In this document: positions 150-31,713 of the stretch, one piece after another | Layout: the number at the start of each line of letters is the position of its first letter | Position numbering within the stretch: the first letter of the stretch is position 1 | Virus record (IMG/VR): IMGVR_UViG_3300005805_000196 | Coordinates: 1-39,184 of that record | DNA length: 39,184 bases | Origin: a virus | Taxonomy: Duplodnaviria > Caudoviricetes | Strand: one strand, 5' to 3' | Program-made: the position numbers and the translations under genes | The notes under the pieces: model-generated | Database searches by the model: none | What the model saw: only the letters and a program-made list of their open reading frames with translations | Told to the model about the DNA's origin: nothing

Positions 150-225
150 TGGCGCTCCTGGCAGGACTTGAACCCACAACCTGCCGGGTAGAAACCGGAC
201 GCTCTATCCATTGAGCTACAGGAGC
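150..225 (-). tRNA. tRNA-Arg(TCT)
   Basis: Cloverleaf GCTCCTG...CAGGAGC-GCCA, anticodon loop TT-TCT-AC, T-loop TTCAAGT, encoded CCA. Confidence 0.95.
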
Positions 226-271
226 ATATTTACTGCTCAGTAAATAACTGTTATTTACTAAACATGACTTG

Positions 272-361
272 TGAATGGACGCAAATCTCATTTACTTTGC
301 CGCCTCAATGATCGCCCCTCGGCAAAAGGACCGCCACCTGCGCAGCGTTTGCATCCATTCA
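272..361 (-). ncRNA. Putative structured small RNA, unknown family
   Basis: 14-bp closing stem TGAATGGATGCAAA/TTTGCGTCCATTCA (G-U on minus strand) encloses hairpins CGCTGC/GTGGCG and TTTGCCG/CGGCAAA. Confidence 0.6.
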
Positions 362-430
362 AAAGTCATATTCAATTTGTCAAACAACATTGTCTTTATA
401 GCTGCTGTCGTAAATTAAGACAACAGGAAT

Positions 431-504
431 TGGCACCAGCGCAAGGATTCGAACCCTGACAAGCAGTTTTGGAGGCTGCCGTGCTACCGTTACACTACGC
501 TGAT
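431..504 (-). tRNA. tRNA-Trp(CCA)
   Basis: Cloverleaf, loop CT-CCA-AA, GGTTCGAATCC, CCA end. Confidence 0.95.
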
Positions 505-511
505 ATTGATA

Positions 512-603
512 TGGCGGAGGGTAGAGGATTCGAACCTCTGGGACAACTTTCGATGCCCGACTCGTTAGCAATGAGCTGCTTTCGACCACTCAGCCAACCC
601 TCC
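512..603 (-). tRNA. tRNA-Ser(GCT)
   Basis: Long variable arm, loop TT-GCT-AA, G73, CCA end. Confidence 0.95.
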
Positions 604-609
604 ATAAAT

Positions 610-683
610 TGGCTGCCCCTCTAGGACTCGAACCCAGATAGCCGGAACCAAAATCCAGCGTCCTACCATTAGACGAAAGGGCA
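610..683 (-). tRNA. tRNA-Gln(TTG)
   Basis: U1-A72, loop TT-TTG-GT, CCA end. Confidence 0.95.
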
Positions 684-689
684 ATAAAC

Positions 690-763
690 TGGATGCTTCT
701 CGTGGATTCGAACCACGGCCTACTGTTTCAGAGACAGTTGTCCTACCGCTAGACGAAGAAGCA
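690..763 (-). tRNA. tRNA-Gln(CTG)
   Basis: U1-A72, loop CT-CTG-AA, CCA end. Confidence 0.93.
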
Positions 764-770
764 ATAAACT

Positions 771-846
771 TGGGGAGACTAGAGAGAATTGAACTCTCGC
801 CTGCGGACTCACAAACCGCCGTCCTCGCCACTAGACGATAGCCTCC
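771..846 (-). tRNA. tRNA-His(GTG) with encoded G-1/C73
   Basis: G-GAGGCTA/TAGTCTC-C-CCA, loop TT-GTG-AG. Confidence 0.93.
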
Positions 847-852
847 ATCAAC

Positions 853-928
853 TGGTACTCCTGACGGGATTTGAACCCGTGTCTTTGCCTTGAGAGGGCA
901 ATGTCCTAGGCCTCTAGACGACAGGAGC
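853..928 (-). tRNA. tRNA-Glu(CTC)
   Basis: Glu-type D arm TCGTCTAGAGGCCTAGGAC, loop CT-CTC-AA, CCA end. Confidence 0.95.
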
Positions 929-945
929 ATGAATAGAATCAGCGA

Positions 946-1018
946 ACCTTCGTGTTGGATTTCAACCAACGTTTCCAGGCCTCCGGCCCGGTGTCCTAGT
1001 CCTATAGACGAACGAAGC
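946..1018 (-). ncRNA. Pseudo-tRNA or tRNA mimic with a Glu-like body
   Basis: All four stems present, but anticodon loop CC-GGA-GG (no U33), T-loop TTGAAAT, G1:G72 mismatch and no CCA. Confidence 0.7.
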
Positions 1019-1022
1019 AGGC

Positions 1023-1116
1023 ACAAGCGAAGAGATTGCAGTCTCCTCGGTCATATACCTGGCTGACTGACTACACTCGTGAACTGCAATTTATGAGCCG
1101 TCAAAATCTCGCTTGT
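1023..1116 (-). ncRNA. Putative rod-shaped structured RNA
   Basis: Nested stems ACAAGCGA/TCGCTTGT and ATTGCAGT/ACTGCAAT with internal loops; strand assumed from the array. Confidence 0.5.
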
Positions 1117-1193
1117 TTTTATAGAGGTATCAGCCCCCTCTACCGGTACACACCAGAACAGATCTAGAAACCGCTCTTTAGTAATCCGGCGAT

Positions 1194-1268
1194 TGGTGGA
1201 CCCTAGGAGAGTCGAACTCCTGACTTCGGTATGCAAAACCGACGTGTTCCCACTAGCACTAAGGGCCC
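1194..1268 (-). tRNA. tRNA-Ala(TGC)
   Basis: G3:U70 identity pair, loop TT-TGC-AT, CCA end. Confidence 0.95.
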
Positions 1269-1273
1269 TAAAT

Positions 1274-1376
1274 TGAATCGCGGTTGGAATCGAACCAACA
1301 ACCCACTACTTTACCACGGCCAGTGGCGTTTCATGGTCTGGCAATGCCTTTATTTTGAGAGCCAAATTCAGATTCA
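1274..1376 (-). ncRNA. tRNA-like RNA with canonical T-arm and expanded other arms
   Basis: Closing stem TGAATC/GATTCA; T-arm GTTGG-TTCGATT-CCAAC; stems TTTGGC/GCCAGA and CCATG/CGTGG; no CCA. Confidence 0.55.
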
Positions 1377-1418
1377 TGCTGGCCGCATGAGCCCTACTAT
1401 TCCCTCTCCAGCGAAGTT

Positions 1419-1494
1419 TGGAGGACCCTCTCGGATTTGAACCGAGAACCCTCTGAGTAAGAGTCAGATGCTCTGCCAATTGAGCTAAGGGTCC
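1419..1494 (-). tRNA. tRNA-Lys(CTT)
   Basis: Cloverleaf, loop CT-CTT-AC, CCA end. Confidence 0.95.
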
Positions 1495-1502
1495 ATTGTA
1501 AC

Positions 1503-1578
1503 TGGTGGGCGCCTCGGGAATCGAACCCGTTCAATGTCGCGGTGTAAACGCGATGCCTTCCCATCTGGCGCTGCGCCC
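1503..1578 (-). tRNA. tRNA-Val(TAC), non-canonical core
   Basis: Loop TT-TAC-AC, GGTTCGATTCC, CCA end; G at position 8 and mismatches at the acceptor/T-stem junction. Confidence 0.85.
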
Positions 1579-1596
1579 ATTATCTTCATGACTAAT

Positions 1597-1672
1597 TGGT
1601 AGAGCATACCGGATTCGAACCGGTGTTCGCGGCGTGAAAGACCGACGTCCTAGACCTCTAGACGAATGCTCC
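1597..1672 (-). tRNA. tRNA-Glu(TTC)
   Basis: Glu-type D arm, loop CT-TTC-AC, CCA end. Confidence 0.95.
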
Positions 1673-1678
1673 ATAATT

Positions 1679-1768
1679 TGGCGGAGTGATGGCGGAATCG
1701 AACCCCTGGCCCGTAGGCTCCTACCGCTTTCAAGGCGGTGCCAGCATCCCCGGCTGGACATGCACTCC
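1679..1768 (-). tRNA. tRNA-Ser(TGA), atypical 8/4-type fold
   Basis: Loop CT-TGA-AA, variable arm GCC-TACG-GGC, G73-CCA; bulged 8-bp acceptor, 4-bp T-stem, 5-bp D-stem. Confidence 0.85.
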
Positions 1769-1772
1769 AAAT

Positions 1773-1847
1773 TGGTTGCAGAGACAGGACTTGCACCTGT
1801 GGCCTTCTGGGTATGAGCCAGACGAGCTGCTTCTGCTCCACTCTGCG
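1773..1847 (-). tRNA. Initiator-like tRNA-fMet(CAT)
   Basis: C1:A72 mismatch, loop CT-CAT-AC, CCA end; T-loop TGCAAGT; anticodon stem TCTGG. Confidence 0.88.
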
Positions 1848-1851
1848 TTAT

Positions 1852-1992
1852 TCTGATGTTTTCTGGTGTGCATGGGTCAACAAATATTGTCTCTCTCCTC
1901 TACTAAGGAAATTGGTAACAATTGTTTCGCCGTAGTAGCGACCGCACGCCCGCGTCAGCGGTAGCGCCTCATGCACACTAGAAAACATCAGA
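1852..1992 (-). ncRNA. Putative multibranch structured RNA
   Basis: 23-bp inverted repeat (1852-1874 / 1970-1992, 1 mismatch) enclosing several GC-rich hairpins; strand assumed. Confidence 0.6.
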
Positions 1993-1998
1993 TGTTAC

Positions 1999-2113
1999 TC
2001 TGATGTTTTTTACCACCGAATTTTACTCGCTGCGTTATCGCCGCAGCTTTCATCCTCGGTTCCGCCCGTTTGGCCTAATCACGTGCAGGCCGCGCCCTCG
2101 TTGCGCTATCAGA
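1999..2113 (-). ncRNA. Putative structured RNA directly downstream of a sigma70-type promoter
   Basis: TCTGAT/ATCAGA closing stem; GGCCT/AGGCC, ACCGA/TCGGT and GCTGCG-GCGATAA-CGCAGC stems. Confidence 0.6.
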
Positions 2114-2119
2114 TCAAGG

Positions 2120-2148
2120 ATACTATCCTAGATCCATCACGTTTGCAA
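2120..2148 (-). promoter_or_regulatory. sigma70-like promoter TTGCAA-N17-TAGTAT overlapped by a palindrome (2112-2134)
   Basis: Hexamers and 17-nt spacer read directly; predicted +1 near 2113 coincides with the RNA stem start. Confidence 0.55.
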
Positions 2149-2176
2149 CAAAAAAGCCCTCCTTTTGGGAGGGCTC
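2148..2176 (-). terminator. Intrinsic terminator (attenuator terminator)
   Basis: AGCCCTCC-CAAAA-GGAGGGCT followed by TTTTTGTT. Confidence 0.9.
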
Positions 2177-2215
2177 GATGAAGCAGGCTGTTGCCCTTCT
2201 GCTACATCGAACCCC
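2170..2215 (-). promoter_or_regulatory. Antiterminator hairpin overlapping the terminator 5' arm
   Basis: GGGGTTCGATG (2215-2205) pairs 11/11 (two G-U) with CATCGAGCCCT (2180-2170), plus AGCAG/CTGCT. Confidence 0.8.
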
Positions 2216-2291
2216 ATGGCGGAATGGCTGAGCCATTCGACCAGGAATTTTTGAATCGTGTTTCTTGTGTGTGCTTTTGTGTCCTCATCAT
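2202..2291 (-). CDS. Putative attenuator leader peptide MMRTQKHTQETRFKNSWSNGSAIPPWGSM (29 aa, leaderless)
   Basis: ATG 6 nt after TATAAATA; TAG stop lies in the antiterminator 5' strand; too short for the ORF track. Confidence 0.7.
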   Translation of the reverse strand: MMRTQKHTQETRFKNSWSNGSAIPPWGSM

Positions 2292-2297
2292 GTTTGC

Positions 2298-2329
2298 TAT
2301 TTATACCCTGAATTCTGAATTTTAGTCAA
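2298..2329 (-). promoter_or_regulatory. Composite promoter: T4-type late box TATAAATA plus TTGACT -35 (18-nt spacer)
   Basis: TTGACT-AAAATTCAGAATTCAGGG-TATAAATA. Confidence 0.75.
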
Positions 2330-2462
2330 CAGGGTAAAATTTATTTTCTACTTCGTGTTCACGTTCAAAGAAAGACTTGAGTTCCATCTCATCAAGCCAC
2401 TCCTCGTATCCCTTCCAGAGGGTCGGATCGTTCTTGATCATTTCAAACTCGTTGTCTTCCAT
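2322..2462 (-). CDS. Small acidic hypothetical protein (46 aa, MEDNEF...)
   Basis: GAGGA RBS and upstream promoter; start trimmed from the track ORF 2322..2639. Confidence 0.65.
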   Translation of the reverse strand: MEDNEFEMIKNDPTLWKGYEEWLDEMELKSFFEREHEVENKFYPVD

Positions 2463-2487
2463 TTGTTCCTCACTTGTTACTTTTTGT

Positions 2488-2516
2488 AGTATCTGTGAAC
2501 TCGAATTTAATGTCAA
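2488..2516 (-). promoter_or_regulatory. Early-type promoter TTGACA-N17-GATACT
   Basis: Motif read directly; one of four similar promoters. Confidence 0.6.
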
Positions 2517-3294: not shown

Positions 3295-3323
3295 ATCATC
3301 TCCTGACTGTAAAAATATGTCAA
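3295..3323 (-). promoter_or_regulatory. Early-type promoter TTGACA-N17-GATGAT
   Basis: -35 overlaps the TGA stop of the upstream gene. Confidence 0.55.
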
Positions 3324-3523
3324 CGCTGTTTATATTCCTGCATTCCCAAGGACATAACAGCCTTATCATTGGCTTCCCTGGTCCTACATCCATAGACGAA
3401 GCCTTTCAGGTAATTATACCTGCCATCAGAGACAAGGTCTTTGATAAATTTGGCATTAACTTTACTCCAACCAAAGTCGAAGTTGTACCCAAGGTCAAAA
3501 CCTTCATTGTAGTCATCCGACAT
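3320..3523 (-). CDS. Hypothetical protein (67 aa)
   Basis: GGAGG RBS, upstream promoter. Confidence 0.7.
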   Translation of the reverse strand: MSDDYNEGFDLGYNFDFGWSKVNAKFIKDLVSDGRYNYLKGFVYGCRTREANDKAVMSLGMQEYKQR

Positions 3524-9915: not shown

Positions 9916-10310
9916 TTGTACCCTCCAACAATAAAATCTCTAAGATTATAGCCATCTTTAGTGGCTTTAGTGACTTCATCTGGTGCCAAATACCTAAGCT
10001 CAGTCACGCCAGACATGTCAGAATACTTGTGTTTTTCAACACCAACATAGCTCTCAACCATAAAGGAACCTTTTGGATACAGCAACTGAAAAAACTTCTC
10101 AATGAGCTTTGCTTCCTCAGCTTCTTTACAGTAGATGCTCCAAATGACCGAGATATCCCAATCATTGTATTGATCAGGATTTCTCCCATAGCCAATGGAA
10201 GCGTCTCGTGAGAAACGCTCCATTACGTCATATCGAATCGTCCATCCAAATTTGTACAGGGTCTTTCCCGTCTCCTTATGGACAAACTTCATCATATAAG
10301 CTTTGGCCAT
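9912..10310 (-). CDS. GIY-YIG/T5orf172-like nuclease-domain protein
   Basis: AYMMKF...LYKFGWT...RF...LIEK pattern. Confidence 0.5.
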   Translation of the reverse strand: MAKAYMMKFVHKETGKTLYKFGWTIRYDVMERFSRDASIGYGRNPDQYNDWDISVIWSIYCKEAEEAKLIEKFFQLLYPKGSFMVESYVGVEKHKYSDMSGVTELRYLAPDEVTKATKDGYNLRDFIVGGYK

Positions 10311-10987
10311 TACTTCATCCTGGCTGAGTTGAGGAACTCGCGTCTAAGCTCGGAATTGATCTCAGAGAACGCACCGCGTGTTGCTAGAGTCATCGTGCTC
10401 GACGAAGTGTCTTGGATGCCACGTGACTTGACACAATAGTGAACACCCTCGATGTAGACAGCAACATCCTGCGATTCTGTAATAAACGCAATCGTTTCTG
10501 CAACCTGCTCAGTCAGTCTCTCCTGGACCTGAGGACGCTTTGCAAAGAACTGTACGATACGATTCAGCTTCGATAGGCCTAGGATAGTATGCTTAGGGAT
10601 GTAGGCAACAGTTGCCTTGCCATCGATGATGACAAAGTGATGCTCACAATTAGATTGAACGTTCACGTTTCGCTCTAGAACAAAGCTAGAATTCTGCCCC
10701 ATCTTATTGTCAATTCGTGTGCACTTTGGGAAGTTGTCGTAGTTGAGACCAAAGAAGATCTCTCTCACATACATCTTTGCAACACGGTTAGGCGTGTCCA
10801 TTAGTGAATCGTCTGTAAGATCCAACCCCAGCTCCTCCATGATAGAAGTGAAGTGCTTGGCAATCTTGCCGATCTTGCTCCTCTCGTTCTTCTTGACTAG
10901 CTCATAGTTCATTGGCGTCTCAAGACCAACACTAATCAAATGCTGGCGGACCTGCTCGCCAAGAATAGGATCATTCTTATCCATCAC
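10310..10987 (-). CDS. folE: GTP cyclohydrolase I
   Basis: TPNRVAKMY, CEHH, GLSKL, RPQVQERLT, HYCVKSRG. Confidence 0.97.
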   Translation of the reverse strand: MMDKNDPILGEQVRQHLISVGLETPMNYELVKKNERSKIGKIAKHFTSIMEELGLDLTDDSLMDTPNRVAKMYVREIFFGLNYDNFPKCTRIDNKMGQNSSFVLERNVNVQSNCEHHFVIIDGKATVAYIPKHTILGLSKLNRIVQFFAKRPQVQERLTEQVAETIAFITESQDVAVYIEGVHYCVKSRGIQDTSSSTMTLATRGAFSEINSELRREFLNSARMK

Positions 10988-11460
10988 TCAAACTCCCTAT
11001 CTTCTCTGTGGCCAACTCTCATTGCCATATTAGAATCTGTCTCACGAACTTCAACCTTGCAGCACCAAATCCTCTTGGCTTCCTCTGCTCCGTAATTAGG
11101 AAGGAAGATTGTGTTAACATACTCATAGAGGAAGTCGGCCAGACCCTCGCAGCCTGTCTTCTCAACTTCCGTAATCTTGGCAAGACTGAGCTCACCAAGA
11201 CGAAGAAGCTCATTACGCTTTGGATCATCCTGCGCAACAAGCAGCGTATGATCAAACCAGTCCTCCAAAAGCGCCTTGAGGGGCTTGAGACCACCAAAAT
11301 CCATGCACCAATTGCGGGCGTCTAGCGTGTCACACTCAAACTCAAAATGAAACGACAAAGCATATCCATGAATGAGATTGCAATGACTATCAGCCCTCCA
11401 CTGCCTATAGGCAACGGGCCCTAGATGTCTATATGTCTTTGTGCTAATATACTTTGCCAT
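10984..11460 (-). CDS. queD: 6-carboxytetrahydropterin synthase
   Basis: HCNLIHGY, DFGGLK, FDHT, GCE, VEVRET. Confidence 0.92.
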   Translation of the reverse strand: MAKYISTKTYRHLGPVAYRQWRADSHCNLIHGYALSFHFEFECDTLDARNWCMDFGGLKPLKALLEDWFDHTLLVAQDDPKRNELLRLGELSLAKITEVEKTGCEGLADFLYEYVNTIFLPNYGAEEAKRIWCCKVEVRETDSNMAMRVGHREDREFE

Positions 11461-11471
11461 GTTCTTCTCCG

Positions 11472-12392
11472 TTACTTACCGATCACGTTACCATAAACGT
11501 AAACGTGCACTCGCGGTGCGATCTTGTATCCACGCTTCATCCCCTCGTCGGCAATTGCTGCAGCGGACATGTGGCCATCAATGTTGCCACCCTGACCATC
11601 AAGGTCACCGCCAACAGGCATTACCCAAATTGGATAGTTGATTCCACGTCTGCGGATCTCTTCTACAATACCAGCAAGCTCATTCCAACACTTTTCCGTG
11701 CCGTTCACGACAAACTTGAACTGGCCTGCAGACGACAGGCAATAATACTTCTGCCAATTGTCATAGTTGATTGCGTCAGTAGCAATCTCACCAGCGACAT
11801 TGAATAGCTTGGGGCTGATCGAGAAGAACAGTTCGCCATTATACTTCTCCCGATTAGAGAAATAGAAGACAAAGTCCTTCGTCAGCTCCTGTGTGCCATT
11901 TGTTTCGAAAGTGATGAACTTGACTGGATTGTTGTGAATTGTCTTCAGTGCATCCACGACAGCGGCGCTGCAAGCCTGCGCGTGCTTCATAAGAGGCTCG
12001 CCACCAGTAAACACAAGATGTGTAGCATTGCCAGTAGCGGGATGAACAAACTTACCTTCTGGATTGTGATCATTCTTCATCAGATCCTGAAGCCTCTCTG
12101 CAATCTCAAGAGGCGTTCCACTTCGCTGAAGATGCTTGAACTTCTTTGCCCACGAGTACGAGGAATCACACCCTCTGTGGAATACAGGAAGATCTTCAAT
12201 CGTCTTGTACTTAGAGACATCAAGATCCTGATAAGGCAGCTCGTATGTGGAAGGATCAGTGGGGTCCTTCTGGCCAAATCCATTGCACTGAAGGTTGCAA
12301 AGGAAGAAACGAAGCCATACGCTAGGCGTGCCGACATAGTGTCCTTCGCCCTGGAACGAGTGGAAGATCTCGCTGTAATGGTAGACAGTCAT
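11472..12392 (-). CDS. queE: 7-carboxy-7-deazaguanine synthase (radical SAM)
   Basis: EIFHSFQGEG, CNLQC, CDS, TGGEP, ETNGT, SPKL, RVH. Confidence 0.95.
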   Translation of the reverse strand: MTVYHYSEIFHSFQGEGHYVGTPSVWLRFFLCNLQCNGFGQKDPTDPSTYELPYQDLDVSKYKTIEDLPVFHRGCDSSYSWAKKFKHLQRSGTPLEIAERLQDLMKNDHNPEGKFVHPATGNATHLVFTGGEPLMKHAQACSAAVVDALKTIHNNPVKFITFETNGTQELTKDFVFYFSNREKYNGELFFSISPKLFNVAGEIATDAINYDNWQKYYCLSSAGQFKFVVNGTEKCWNELAGIVEEIRRRGINYPIWVMPVGGDLDGQGGNIDGHMSAAAIADEGMKRGYKIAPRVHVYVYGNVIGK

Positions 12393-12393
12393 T

Positions 12394-12897
12394 TCAAATC
12401 TCCTTGCTCTTCAGCATTTTCTTCTCGAACTTTTTGGCTTTCTCGAGATGATATAAGTTGGCTCTCTTGGTGAAGATAATACCATTTAGGTGATCCAATT
12501 CGTGTTGGAAGCACCTTGATGTTATTCCATCAAACTTTTTTGTCGTAGTTGTTCCATCATACGACGTGTAGCGGACCTTGATCAACTTCGGTCTCTTTAT
12601 AGGAACAAAAAGATGAGGGTATGAAAGGCAGCCTTCTTCAAGCTGGACATCTTCAGACGAAGTGTCGATTAGCCTGGGATTAAAGCAGACAATTGCTTCG
12701 GGAGCAGATCTCATGACAAAGACTCTGAAAGGGAGACCAACCTGATTTGCAGATAGTCCCATTCCGTTGTGGTGATTCATTGTCTCAATCAAGTCATTGG
12801 CAAGCTCGACTGAATTCATTGGTGGATTGAGGAAATCAAATGGCTCCAATTCTTGCCTAAGTATTGGATGATTTCGGTCTACAAGTTCACGAATCAT
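12394..12897 (-). CDS. def: Peptide deformylase
   Basis: GMGLSANQ, EGCLS, HELDH. Confidence 0.96.
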   Translation of the reverse strand: MIRELVDRNHPILRQELEPFDFLNPPMNSVELANDLIETMNHHNGMGLSANQVGLPFRVFVMRSAPEAIVCFNPRLIDTSSEDVQLEEGCLSYPHLFVPIKRPKLIKVRYTSYDGTTTTKKFDGITSRCFQHELDHLNGIIFTKRANLYHLEKAKKFEKKMLKSKEI

Positions 12898-16365: not shown

Positions 16366-16584
16366 TTACTTCCTGTTCAATCGTCTTGAGGAGTTGTTCT
16401 CAAGCAGCGTTTCTTTTTCGTATCTTGCAATCTCATAAACAAGAAGATCATGAATACGCTTTGCAGTCTGATAATCATTGTACCTACGGAATGTAGGAAC
16501 GGACGAAGCGCGAAGCCTGCTGACAAGCTCAACAATCACTTGGGGGCACTGATTTTCTAGTTCAAGCTTTTGCTTCGTGTTCAT
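16366..16584 (-). CDS. Hypothetical protein (72 aa)
   Basis: GAGGAG RBS before MNTKQ; lies between gp55 and gp47. Confidence 0.6.
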   Translation of the reverse strand: MNTKQKLELENQCPQVIVELVSRLRASSVPTFRRYNDYQTAKRIHDLLVYEIARYEKETLLENNSSRRLNRK

Positions 16585-17128
16585 TTTCATTCTCCTCAAT
16601 GAATTTCTCAATTCCTATAGTACGCTTTGCACGTTTCTTTGTCAACGACTGTTCAAATGTTTTGATGAATTCATGCATGTTTTCAGTGTCAAGGTTAACA
16701 TAAGCAGGGTTAAAGTCCCTATCTTCTCCTTCCTGTATTTCAACAAGACTGTTCATCAACATAGAATTCTCTAGAATCTTATGCTTTGTATAGAGTTGTT
16801 TCTTTTCCTTTTGAATGCGCCTCAGAAACGCGTAGTAGATAATTTGAGTAAAGTATGCAAATGGATTCTCAGATTTTTTTGGATTGAAGTTATGTATGTA
16901 CATAAAACAGTTTTCAATCCCATCACTAATCATTTCATCTCTGAAGGGGTAGTTAATGAAGTTTGGTTTATGGGAGAGATTGGTTGCTATTAGCAAGATA
17001 CATTCACCAATGTAGTTTGGCATCTGAGGTGTTGGCTCACCTGTCTTTGCAGCTTTTTTAACAAGCAACTTGTGTTGCTTGAGTGCCTTCAGCAACTGCT
17101 CATTGTTAACATAATGTCTCTTGCTCAT
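16562..17128 (-). CDS. gp55: Late-transcription sigma factor
   Basis: HYVNN, YIGEC, EMISDGIENC, NPFAYFTQI. Confidence 0.97.
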   Translation of the reverse strand: MSKRHYVNNEQLLKALKQHKLLVKKAAKTGEPTPQMPNYIGECILLIATNLSHKPNFINYPFRDEMISDGIENCFMYIHNFNPKKSENPFAYFTQIIYYAFLRRIQKEKKQLYTKHKILENSMLMNSLVEIQEGEDRDFNPAYVNLDTENMHEFIKTFEQSLTKKRAKRTIGIEKFIEENENEHEAKA

Positions 17129-26358: not shown

Positions 26359-28713
26359 TTAGAATTGGCCAACAATCTCTGAGAATTCTACACCTGTTCT
26401 CACAGCGACGAAGTTCAGCTGGATGAAGTTGATTGAACGTGCTGGCTTGATGTAGATGTCGCCAACAAACTCGTTACGATCTATTACTTCTCCTGTGTTG
26501 TTTGTTTCGTCACAAACAACCTTGAAGTCGTAGATGCCGCGTCTTCCTTGAATGTCTCTCAGGAATGGCTCAACGAGATTCTTGAACTGAGCTCTTGTAA
26601 ACTCGTCGTTCAACTCAAACAGTGTGAACTTAGCTGCTGTTGCAATTGCCTTCTCAAGAACAATGAACAGACGACGAACATTGATTCTGTCGAAAGCGCT
26701 TGGCTTAGCCAACAGAGTCTTGTCGCCGTAGAGTAGTGTTCCCTGACCAGGGAAGGTAACGACAGGATTGATGCCACTCTTGTAAAGGACATCTCTGTCA
26801 GCCTTACCTGGATTGTATGCTAGCTTGATTACATTCTTAATAATACCGCGGTTGAAGCCTGCAGGAGAGAACCAAGGATCTCTTGTGTCGTCTGTTCTTA
26901 CTGCAAGACCGGCCATGTCACCGTTTAGAGGAATGTATCGATAGACATCATTGTAGCGGTCGTACTGATACTTGTACCCAGAATCAAGGACTGCATACGA
27001 TGTGGATGTCAGAGAATTTCGGAAAGTGACAATGTCGTTCGATTCATCTCTTCCTGCATTCTGAACAACGTCTGCCTTATCTGGGCTGATGAAAGCTACG
27101 CAGTCTTTTCTAACTTCGCAGATATTGTCAATAATGTAGTTTGCCATTTGCTGACCGTTAGTGCTGCCTCTTGCCTTACCAGCGACGATCAAGGAGATGT
27201 CGACATCTTCTGCTGATTTGAATAGGTCATAGCCTGATGACAACACACTTACAGGAACATCGCTTTCATTATCACCATCTGACCCAAAAATCATTGAAAG
27301 AGACATTGGAACTGAGCTTGTGGCAGATGTGATGTTTAGTGATGTATTTGATACTGCTGTTGTTCGATCGTTAACCCACCAAACGTAGGCTGAATTGTCA
27401 TTAATTACTGTCTTGTAGTAGTTGGTAGCACCTTCATTTGTCTTTGCATCTGATGCTCTTGACACGCTCTGATAGACTTCTAGGATTGTTCCAGGAACCC
27501 CAGTGAACTTACCATCTTCGTCTGTGACAACAACATGCAACTCATCATTTGCTGATGTGTTTCCAAAGCTTGTCACGTAATCGGATCTGCCAGGAGCTGC
27601 ATCTACGTTATCAAAGAATTCCCAGTATCTTACGATCGTATTTGAAGAAGCGTTAGTTGTGATTGAATAGTTTGAGTCAAACGACAACACAACAGATGCT
27701 GCTGCATTTGATGTGCTGTTACCAGCATTTGCTACTGCACCAACAGCGGTTACCTTTAGATACTGCTTGCCAATCGTGCTGTTACCTGCCTCGACAATGT
27801 CGTTGACTGAAATTAAGCCAGCAATTGTTGAAGCAACATTGCCAATTTCAGAATTCGTAATCGTAGCATTAGCAGCAAACACAGTTACTGTAGCTGTGTT
27901 GCTTCCAGAAACAAATGCAACATTTGAAGTTGTACCATTTGCCCACAGATTATAAGTGTTAGAAGTGTTGGATCCTATGTAATACTCACTTGAATTGAAT
28001 GAAATGTTTGAATTGTATTGGTTGGCTGTATCACACACAGAAACCTTTAACGAATTTCCAAGTTCTCCAGGGAATCTTGCAATGTATGCTACTTCAGTAC
28101 CAAACGAGTCGTCTTTGACTTCATAGTCATCTTCATTCTCTACAACATACAGAGCTAGTTTGCTAGCAAGAGCCGATTGGTTTGCAATTGAAGTAAATAC
28201 AGCATTTGAAGAGACAAAATACAAAGTGCTCGATGACACAGTTCCAAGGGTTGCCTTTGATAGAACAATTGCTGTCGTATTTGATGTGTCTGAAGTGTTA
28301 CCAATAGAGGCTACTGTTGTTCCTACAGCAATATTAGCACCATATACAACCATGCCTACTGCTACATTAGCAGCTGTTGTGTTTGCAAAGCCTGTGACAG
28401 TTGTATTAGCACCAGATGTTGATAAACCTGAAATTGTATTTGAAAACCCAGTAGTGTTAGCAGCACGGCTAACATACAGCTTGTTGCCATATGCAAGGAA
28501 GTTAGCGGCGCTAAAGAACGTTTCTGGATTGTGATTTGTTGGCTTTCCAAAGCGGTTGACGAGGTTGGATTCCGAGTCGATCAGGATTCTCTTGTCGACT
28601 GGACCCCATCTGAACACGCCAGAAATTGCACCTTCAGTTGTAGAAACTGCAGGAACTACCGTTGTCAGGTCGATTTCAGATACGTTTACGCCTGGACTAA
28701 CTTGAAATGGCAT
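26359..28713 (-). CDS. gp18: Contractile tail sheath protein with Asn/Ser/Thr-rich insertion domains
   Basis: SPGV...EID, PWFSPAG, FDRINVRRLF, IKPARSINFI. Confidence 0.98.
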   Translation of the reverse strand: MPFQVSPGVNVSEIDLTTVVPAVSTTEGAISGVFRWGPVDKRILIDSESNLVNRFGKPTNHNPETFFSAANFLAYGNKLYVSRAANTTGFSNTISGLSTSGANTTVTGFANTTAANVAVGMVVYGANIAVGTTVASIGNTSDTSNTTAIVLSKATLGTVSSSTLYFVSSNAVFTSIANQSALASKLALYVVENEDDYEVKDDSFGTEVAYIARFPGELGNSLKVSVCDTANQYNSNISFNSSEYYIGSNTSNTYNLWANGTTSNVAFVSGSNTATVTVFAANATITNSEIGNVASTIAGLISVNDIVEAGNSTIGKQYLKVTAVGAVANAGNSTSNAAASVVLSFDSNYSITTNASSNTIVRYWEFFDNVDAAPGRSDYVTSFGNTSANDELHVVVTDEDGKFTGVPGTILEVYQSVSRASDAKTNEGATNYYKTVINDNSAYVWWVNDRTTAVSNTSLNITSATSSVPMSLSMIFGSDGDNESDVPVSVLSSGYDLFKSAEDVDISLIVAGKARGSTNGQQMANYIIDNICEVRKDCVAFISPDKADVVQNAGRDESNDIVTFRNSLTSTSYAVLDSGYKYQYDRYNDVYRYIPLNGDMAGLAVRTDDTRDPWFSPAGFNRGIIKNVIKLAYNPGKADRDVLYKSGINPVVTFPGQGTLLYGDKTLLAKPSAFDRINVRRLFIVLEKAIATAAKFTLFELNDEFTRAQFKNLVEPFLRDIQGRRGIYDFKVVCDETNNTGEVIDRNEFVGDIYIKPARSINFIQLNFVAVRTGVEFSEIVGQF

Positions 28714-28779: not shown

Positions 28780-31713
<2,934 letters not shown>

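Follow-up and report, generated by a model that had tools for sequence, protein, structure and literature searches.

Why phages carry tRNA genes is an old question, and the current answers, codon supply and the replacement of cleaved host tRNAs, assume simply strong expression. For the locus studied here the original prediction was of a leader-peptide attenuator that senses translation and turns on the tRNA array behind it, and we ask whether such a switch stands there and what it would report. If it does control the array, some phages make tRNA on demand, the conditions that open the 150-nt switch would tell the purpose of the tRNAs, and ribosome-mediated attenuation would be seen to reach tRNA genes as well as late transcription in phages.

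By gene content, the window (the whole 39,184-nt virus record analysed here) comes from a T4-like phage of lake water. Its minus strand carries all of the capsid, portal, sheath, terminase, clamp, clamp loader, RegA and gp55-like late sigma factor genes, and DNA of the window is contained in lake and freshwater sequencing runs. The nearest cultured matches to its capsid are Stenotrophomonas phage DLP6 (71%) and Sinorhizobium phages phiM12 and N3 (68%). The leader element at the head of the tRNA array is genuine, with all of its parts where they had been predicted (Table 1).

Table 1. Features of the leader, its surroundings and the tRNA array in the window.
Feature	Position	Strand	Basis
gp55-like late sigma factor	16562..17128	-	PHROG 234, E 1.6e-60
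Sigma-70-like promoter and conserved 46-aa ORF, upstream of leader	2322..2516	-	promoter scan, ORF list, relatives
-35-like hexamer TTGACT	2324..2329	-	sequence; same position in L120, L147
TATAAATA, T4-type late promoter motif	2298..2305	-	late-motif comparison; position kept in relatives
29-codon leader ORF, no SD	2202..2291 (TAG 2204-2202)	-	ORF list, relatives
Hairpin inside ORF, candidate polymerase pause hairpin	2222..2238	-	folding, shuffles, relatives
Predicted antiterminator, outer helix 2215-2205/2180-2170 (11 bp), inner helix 2203-2199/2186-2182	2170..2215	-	folding, shuffles
Predicted intrinsic terminator, 9-bp stem, -16 kcal/mol, six T	2150..2176	-	folding, terminator rule
Conserved structured RNA, first element past terminator	2013..2121	-	15 sequences, 9/16 predicted pairs with double-sided change
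23-bp stem closing 95-nt insert, differing or missing in relatives	1852..1992	-	folding, relatives
tRNA array, 14 tRNA or tRNA-like genes	150..1847	-	12 by ARAGORN; 14 with Rfam and relaxed ARAGORN

Promoter motifs, reading frame and folds of the leader

The promoter had been read as TTGACT with an 18-nt spacer. That sequence is present, in the order TTGACT, 18 nt, TATAAATA, 6 nt and the ATG at 2291, but TTGACT-N18-TATAAA fails the sigma-70 scan rule, and the part of the promoter that is invariant in relatives is the late motif TAAATA. The same motif precedes the adaptor, sheath, scaffold and tube genes of the window, and the likely reader of TATAAATA is the gp55-like late sigma factor. T4 late transcription starts about 5-7 nt after its motif, so the predicted RNA begins at or just before the ATG and would be near-leaderless. 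The T4-type late motif is given as NATAAATA in PMC2984593, a source that also mentions overlapping early and late promoters, and TTGACT may possibly belong to an overlapping early promoter of the sigma-70 type. In most relatives the sigma-70-like promoter is a separate one, 30-50 nt further upstream, and no terminator was found between the 46-aa ORF and the leader.

Two features upstream of the leader ORF touch on how it might be fed. A three-copy repeat at 2505-2535, 2891-2921 and 3312-3342 carries TTGACA on the minus strand, and we read its copies as an early-promoter family feeding small ORFs towards the leader. In four relatives (L097, L098, L081 and L127) an ORF of 5-6 codons, close to the leader ATG on its upstream side, starts 6-9 nt past a sigma-70-like -10 box and has its stop inside TAAATA, and an upstream 54-aa ORF in L082 shares that stop. 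The 5-6-codon ORF could possibly couple translation, loading the leader on early transcripts.

The leader ORF has the 29 codons originally described, with no SD-like purine run ahead of its ATG. Folding added a hairpin inside the ORF that was absent from the original prediction; only 0.3% of 300 shuffles were as stable for the window, and at most 5.3% in 10 of the 12 short leaders defined below. Across nine close relatives its stem is invariant and its loop variable, and a hairpin at the matching place is present in short leaders and mostly missing from long ones. The hairpin can be extended to 2249-2210, and then sequesters part of the antiterminator 5' arm.

Beyond the ORF, the 11-bp outer helix, the inner helix and the terminator folded in our models as the original prediction had described. 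The stop codon comes right after the outer antiterminator 5' arm, the terminator stem spans 2176-2154 with its T run reaching 2150, and the two predicted structures are mutually exclusive, since 7 nt of the terminator 5' arm are common to both. The 150-nt leader had a folding z of -4.3, with 0/200 shuffles as stable, and none of 500 shuffles of the ORF end matched the antiterminator duplex (-26.9 kcal/mol). The background came from 80 regA-anchored loci in related T4-like phages, which gave 41 terminators. The window duplex, at -28.1, beat every competing helix of these terminators, the top two of which were themselves from tRNA-array leaders (L001 and L008). A wider test placed 17 of 19 leaders within the top 5% of this background, to which L001 and L008 belong. 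A looser test of the window leader, on the probability that the arm is paired in nascent RNA, came out weaker, at 0.99 against a shuffle mean of 0.69, with 4.5% of 200 shuffles as high.

Searches with the exact antiterminator pattern and the terminator-flank pattern gave 0 matches in viral contigs. No Rfam family matched the leader, the best leader model being Phe_leader with 19.6 bits against a cut-off of 55, and for the terminator part only. A near-identical leader, bridging the terminator, is present in contigs of three of four RNA libraries, although contigs cannot show transcription, strand or ends.

What related phages keep

Related loci were gathered by patterns from the downstream RNA and from the upstream 46-aa ORF. 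Chance pattern matches were removed by eye (21/43, 5/21 and 2/7 loci, the last two being L087 and L089), and loci at contig ends (L099, L100), with no tRNA nearby (L103-L112) or with duplicate ORFs (L124, L138) were left out. A fixed rule for a terminator and a short ORF of up to 60 codons was then applied to 27 loci, and both were found in 18 of the 20 loci that had the downstream RNA as their anchor, and in three of seven regA-anchored tRNA arrays. The 60-codon limit leaves the start codons of L161 and L165 uncertain, and L157 fails the terminator rule although its hairpin is visible. In L152 the downstream RNA is present but the terminator is missing, and four of the seven regA-anchored arrays lack a leader. 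Among cultured relatives no leader was found in DLP6 101000-114200 or phiM12 93500-97000, and blastn of the window region, the downstream RNA and three relatives' leaders against cultured phages returned only tRNA matches or matches under 40 nt. The layout is thus not universal among related phages.

Nineteen leaders, from the window and 18 related loci, were carried forward and fall by sequence into about eight lineages. In all of them the stop lies 22-35 nt ahead of the terminator stem. Twelve are short (the window, L120, nine of the L081 group and L147), with 28-31 codons, 15-17 amino acids, no SD and an ATG 4-6 nt past TAAATA in every case. The seven long leaders have 34-60 codons and 19-20 amino acids, and one of them, L164, has a clear SD. 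The same RNA lies downstream of the window leader and of the long L129 and L164, which links the short and long forms.

The encoded peptide is not conserved. Most pairs of short leaders show pN near pS. The tail of L097 is frameshifted and meets a new stop one base away, and the window and the L081 group read the in-ORF hairpin in different frames. A nascent-peptide arrest leader of the SecM, TnaC or ErmCL kind was rejected on these grounds, as there is no conserved arrest peptide. Despite the frame shifts, the leaders keep the place where the ORF starts, its open frame, a stop where the antiterminator 5' arm ends and the competing helix, in differing sequences.

An open frame would arise by chance with P 0.06-0.31 per lineage. 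At least five unrelated pairs of antiterminator sequences (window/L120, L081 group, L147, L129 and L164) were each matched by fewer than 1% of 500 shuffles, while four of the seven long leaders (L161, L165, L001 and L017) failed this narrow duplex test. Among the nine closest relatives the helices are invariant (98.8% paired) with 0 double-sided changes; the helix covariation is between lineages, from per-sequence folding and not from one alignment. No motif was common to all lineages in the leader sequence.

A conserved, open, short leader ORF is thus found together with a predicted antiterminator and intrinsic terminator that exclude each other. The SD of L164 and the presence of all 20 amino acids in four of the seven long leaders point to translation in the family. 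Conservation across lineages and the ribosome-mask folding below support the proposed ribosome-coupled terminator/antiterminator switch, and we conclude that a real, conserved attenuator probably stands at the head of this phage tRNA array and is coupled to the ribosome.

Ribosome position and the signal that might be sensed

Coupling was modelled by masking a ribosome footprint on the RNA before the terminator 3' arm emerges, with kinetics approximated. With each of three footprint sizes, the antiterminator of the window leader was predicted to hold the terminator arm (P about 1.0) until the A site is at codon 24-26. Eleven of the 12 short leaders were predicted to switch at codon 24-25, and L147 at 27-28. 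The predicted sensing zone is therefore codons 2 to about 23, and the five or six codons that close the ORF would be structural. In L097 the arm was predicted to re-pair elsewhere at codons 27-29, and in 6 of the 19 leaders (L120, L082, L161, L165, L001 and L008) the terminator dominated the equilibrium model at every ribosome position.

For the window leader the equilibrium model puts the terminator state lower in energy (-49.9 vs -46.7 kcal/mol) and favours it with 0.69, whereas in nascent, untranslated RNA the antiterminator forms first with 0.99; the switch must therefore be kinetic, which the order of synthesis would allow. Across the short leaders the antiterminator was likewise predicted first when no ribosome was present (P 0.68-1.0). 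Successive minimum-energy folds of the ribosome-free window leader passed from a long hairpin over part of the arm to the antiterminator and then the terminator. With part of the antiterminator arm tied up in that first hairpin, the model is ambiguous for the untranslated window leader, and the suggested response to initiation failure is, for this copy, plausible but ambiguous.

The original prediction took the ORF for a sampler of about 22 codons and 15 amino acids, many matched to tRNAs in the array. The 15 amino acids stand (C, D, L, V and Y are missing), but the distinct codons number 21, and 29-codon pieces of this phage's own genes average 14.7 amino acids and 21.2 codons, which places the window at chance (P 0.57 and 0.64). 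A purpose-built codon sampler was rejected against two nulls, and codons 1-24 alone gave P 0.26. The match to array anticodons was not significant in the window (P 0.11-0.24), nor in L098 or L081; block 1 of L082 gave P 0.005 against the gene null and 0.09 against the composition null. Amino-acid content is above chance in five of the seven long leaders (L129, L164, L001, L008 and L017; P 0.027 or less), of which the first four carry all 20 (P 0.013 or less). The sampler argument holds for the long relatives and fails for this copy, and the coverage of the short subfamily is incidental. Set against the relatives with 20 amino acids, the short subfamily naturally lends itself to asking what breadth a sensor of this kind needs.

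Among working systems, the one that comes closest is the whiB7 uORF attenuator of mycobacteria and not trp or his. There, efficient uORF translation leads to a rho-independent terminator and inefficient translation to an antiterminator, a single codon of an amino acid is enough for sensing, loss of the start codon raises read-through, and uORF length and sequence vary by species, some lacking several amino acids (10.1101/2023.06.02.543512). The window leader resembles it in the layout of a short ORF ahead of a predicted terminator/antiterminator pair, in a variable ORF sequence with no run of a single control codon, and in a stop that lies on the antiterminator arm. It differs in falling short of the near-complete amino-acid coverage of the whiB7 type, at 15/20, and in being phage-encoded, near-leaderless and placed after a late-promoter motif; where whiB7 encodes a transcription factor, this leader would gate a non-coding RNA and tRNA genes, and no homology is claimed. 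By analogy with whiB7, where one codon suffices, broad sensing would not need selection on content, and we accordingly take the short form for a sensor of ribosome lag in general.

Our preferred reading, to which we give a probability of about 0.6, is that the switch wired to this ORF is a ribosome-coupled attenuator reporting generally slow or missing translation and not one amino acid, the short form being a general lag sensor that covers about three quarters of the amino acids. Guided by the phage late sigma factor, host RNA polymerase would start at or next to the ATG, a ribosome would load onto the near-leaderless RNA, and the in-ORF hairpin would probably pause polymerase until the ribosome catches up. 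A ribosome at about codon 24 would cover the antiterminator 5' arm, allowing the terminator to form at ~2150. A ribosome held earlier, whether slow to load or waiting at a hungry codon (each of the 15 amino acids would serve), would let the antiterminator form first, and polymerase would go on to transcribe the conserved RNA and the tRNAs. The resulting tRNA would relieve the input, closing a negative feedback loop. That related phages keep the layout in different sequences makes read-through into the tRNA genes when ribosomes lag likely.

The main rival to a lag sensor keeps the same switch and has the short subfamily read ribosome loading or the stage of infection instead of decoding speed, which we think unlikely. 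Inefficient leaderless initiation would make read-through the default, with termination when free ribosomes are plentiful or arrive from an upstream ORF, as on early transcripts. The 12 short leaders without an SD and with codon content at chance suit this account, as do the antiterminator predicted first in ribosome-free RNA, the early and late promoter-like sites that both feed the leader, and the upstream stop inside TAAATA, 8-9 nt before the ATG, in the L081 group. However, any translated frame of such geometry should answer hungry codons, as that of whiB7 does, and the long relatives have been selected for amino-acid content.

Less probable again is a fixed leaky terminator, in which the competing helix keeps read-through at one level and the short ORF is a degenerating leftover of the long sensor for all amino acids. 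A constant leak would not need an open frame, and all 12 short leaders have kept the start spacing, the length of 28-31 codons and the stop on the arm through compensated frameshifts, even though diversity is at chance level and pN near pS in the short subfamily and the terminator has been lost in L152.

We see little room for an incidental ORF and a switch thrown by something that binds the leader, either a protein such as an antitermination factor of phage or host, or an RNA, as in a T-box-like contact with tRNA. An RNA-binding RegA homologue is encoded nearby, and the stem of the in-ORF hairpin is invariant in close relatives whatever the frame; against this, no leader motif is common across lineages, the position of the stop is conserved and Rfam gave no T-box or riboswitch match. 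A T-box riboswitch was rejected, with no Rfam T-box match at E up to 10. A single-signal attenuator, answering Trp starvation, a nascent-peptide stall or a stall at Pro-Pro-Trp (a ribosome stall motif), is very improbable: all 12 short leaders contain Trp and the window has Pro-Pro-Trp, but the only Trp of L120 is within the last five codons, too late for a stall to leave the arm exposed, Pro-Pro-Trp occurs in no relative and the peptide is not conserved, so Trp sensing and the Pro-Pro-Trp stall were both rejected.

The known leader-peptide attenuators of amino-acid operons, trpL and hisL alongside pheL, offer a partial parallel. The trp/his/pheST geometry claimed for this leader stands as far as the attenuator layout goes, but there is no control-codon run for any one amino acid in the leaders, and the stop is on the antiterminator arm. 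Like the pheL-type leader, described as a short ORF with a 1:2 pause hairpin, a 2:3 antiterminator and a 3:4 terminator with a U run (PMC3082878), it has a short leader ORF, a candidate 1:2 pause hairpin and predicted 2:3 and 3:4 structures. Unlike trpL, hisL and pheL, it precedes a structured RNA and tRNA genes and not biosynthetic or synthetase genes.

The Anabaena trn operon shares the logic of a tRNA array that is switched on when translation suffers, but control there is by a repressor protein at the promoter (PMC8421152, PMC10272220), and the main text of PMC8421152 has no attenuation or leader wording. The tRNAs of T5-like phages counter tRNA-cleaving defences, with rescue depending on expression level (PMC11555353, PMC10264068), and suggest a likely purpose for a phage tRNA supply; expression in that case is explained by a strong promoter, and the main text of PMC11555353 does not mention attenuation. 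The original prediction knew of no described phage element of this kind, and our literature search, which covered titles and the openings of abstracts and few subscription papers, likewise found no leader-ORF attenuator before phage tRNA genes. A tentative extension is that large T4-like phages use a test ORF to sense tRNA-destroying host defences or a drain on tRNA late in infection and de-attenuate their own tRNA array, as an inducible, protein-free counter-defence that would here take a stripped-down leaderless form on a late promoter.

The downstream RNA, the tRNA array and the rest of the genome

The conserved RNA past the terminator precedes the first tRNA in T4-like and jumbo phages (L129, L147, L152, L157, L161, L164, L165 and others). 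It matches no Rfam family at gathering score, and its exact pattern was found 0 times in GTDB genomes. Its model, run against the E. coli rnpB locus, gave a best local match of 29 nt (9.1 bits, rough E 0.015 in 801 nt), which, as the target was chosen after the fact, is a lead only; the stretch presumably belongs to the domain that reads the tRNA elbow. RNase P catalytic RNA was not found in four relatives' records.

The stem-closed insert that follows appears exchangeable: it differs in L098 and L097, is replaced by two tandem cassettes in L102, is missing from L088, and is skipped or replaced in lake contigs. From this pattern it looks like a slot for variable small RNAs.

The tRNA array probably runs past the contig end, and complete or longer relatives have 24-34 tRNAs. 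Within the arrays of relatives, promoter-like sites precede Arg, Thr and Tyr, and the rule used detected no terminator. A second leader before the Tyr/Gly/Leu block was considered and rejected, as a promoter-like site was found there instead. Given these internal sites, control by the switch may be limited to the first tRNA block or to late transcripts, and so it may set that block and late read-through, not the whole supply.

Several smaller observations concern the array and the genome. A weak tRNA-like gene at 946-1018 (minus strand, 33 bits, anticodon GGA) is missed by default ARAGORN. The inter-tRNA spacers at 1020-1190, 1280-1415 and 255-380 (minus strand) contain hairpins and T-loop-like ends with no Rfam match at cut-off, and a 25-nt inverted repeat (261-285/348-372) lies in a tRNA spacer. 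Before the tRNA array of DLP6, an unannotated stretch (L183:1840-2080) resembles a two-piece tmRNA with a tag-like frame. Elsewhere in the window, FolE, QueD, QueE-like and peptide deformylase genes are consecutive at 10310-12897 (minus strand) and probably represent a 7-deazaguanine pathway. The large terminase (857 aa, 28780-31353) and the sheath protein (784 aa, 26359-28713), both on the minus strand, are long for T4-like phages, possibly through an intein or insertion.
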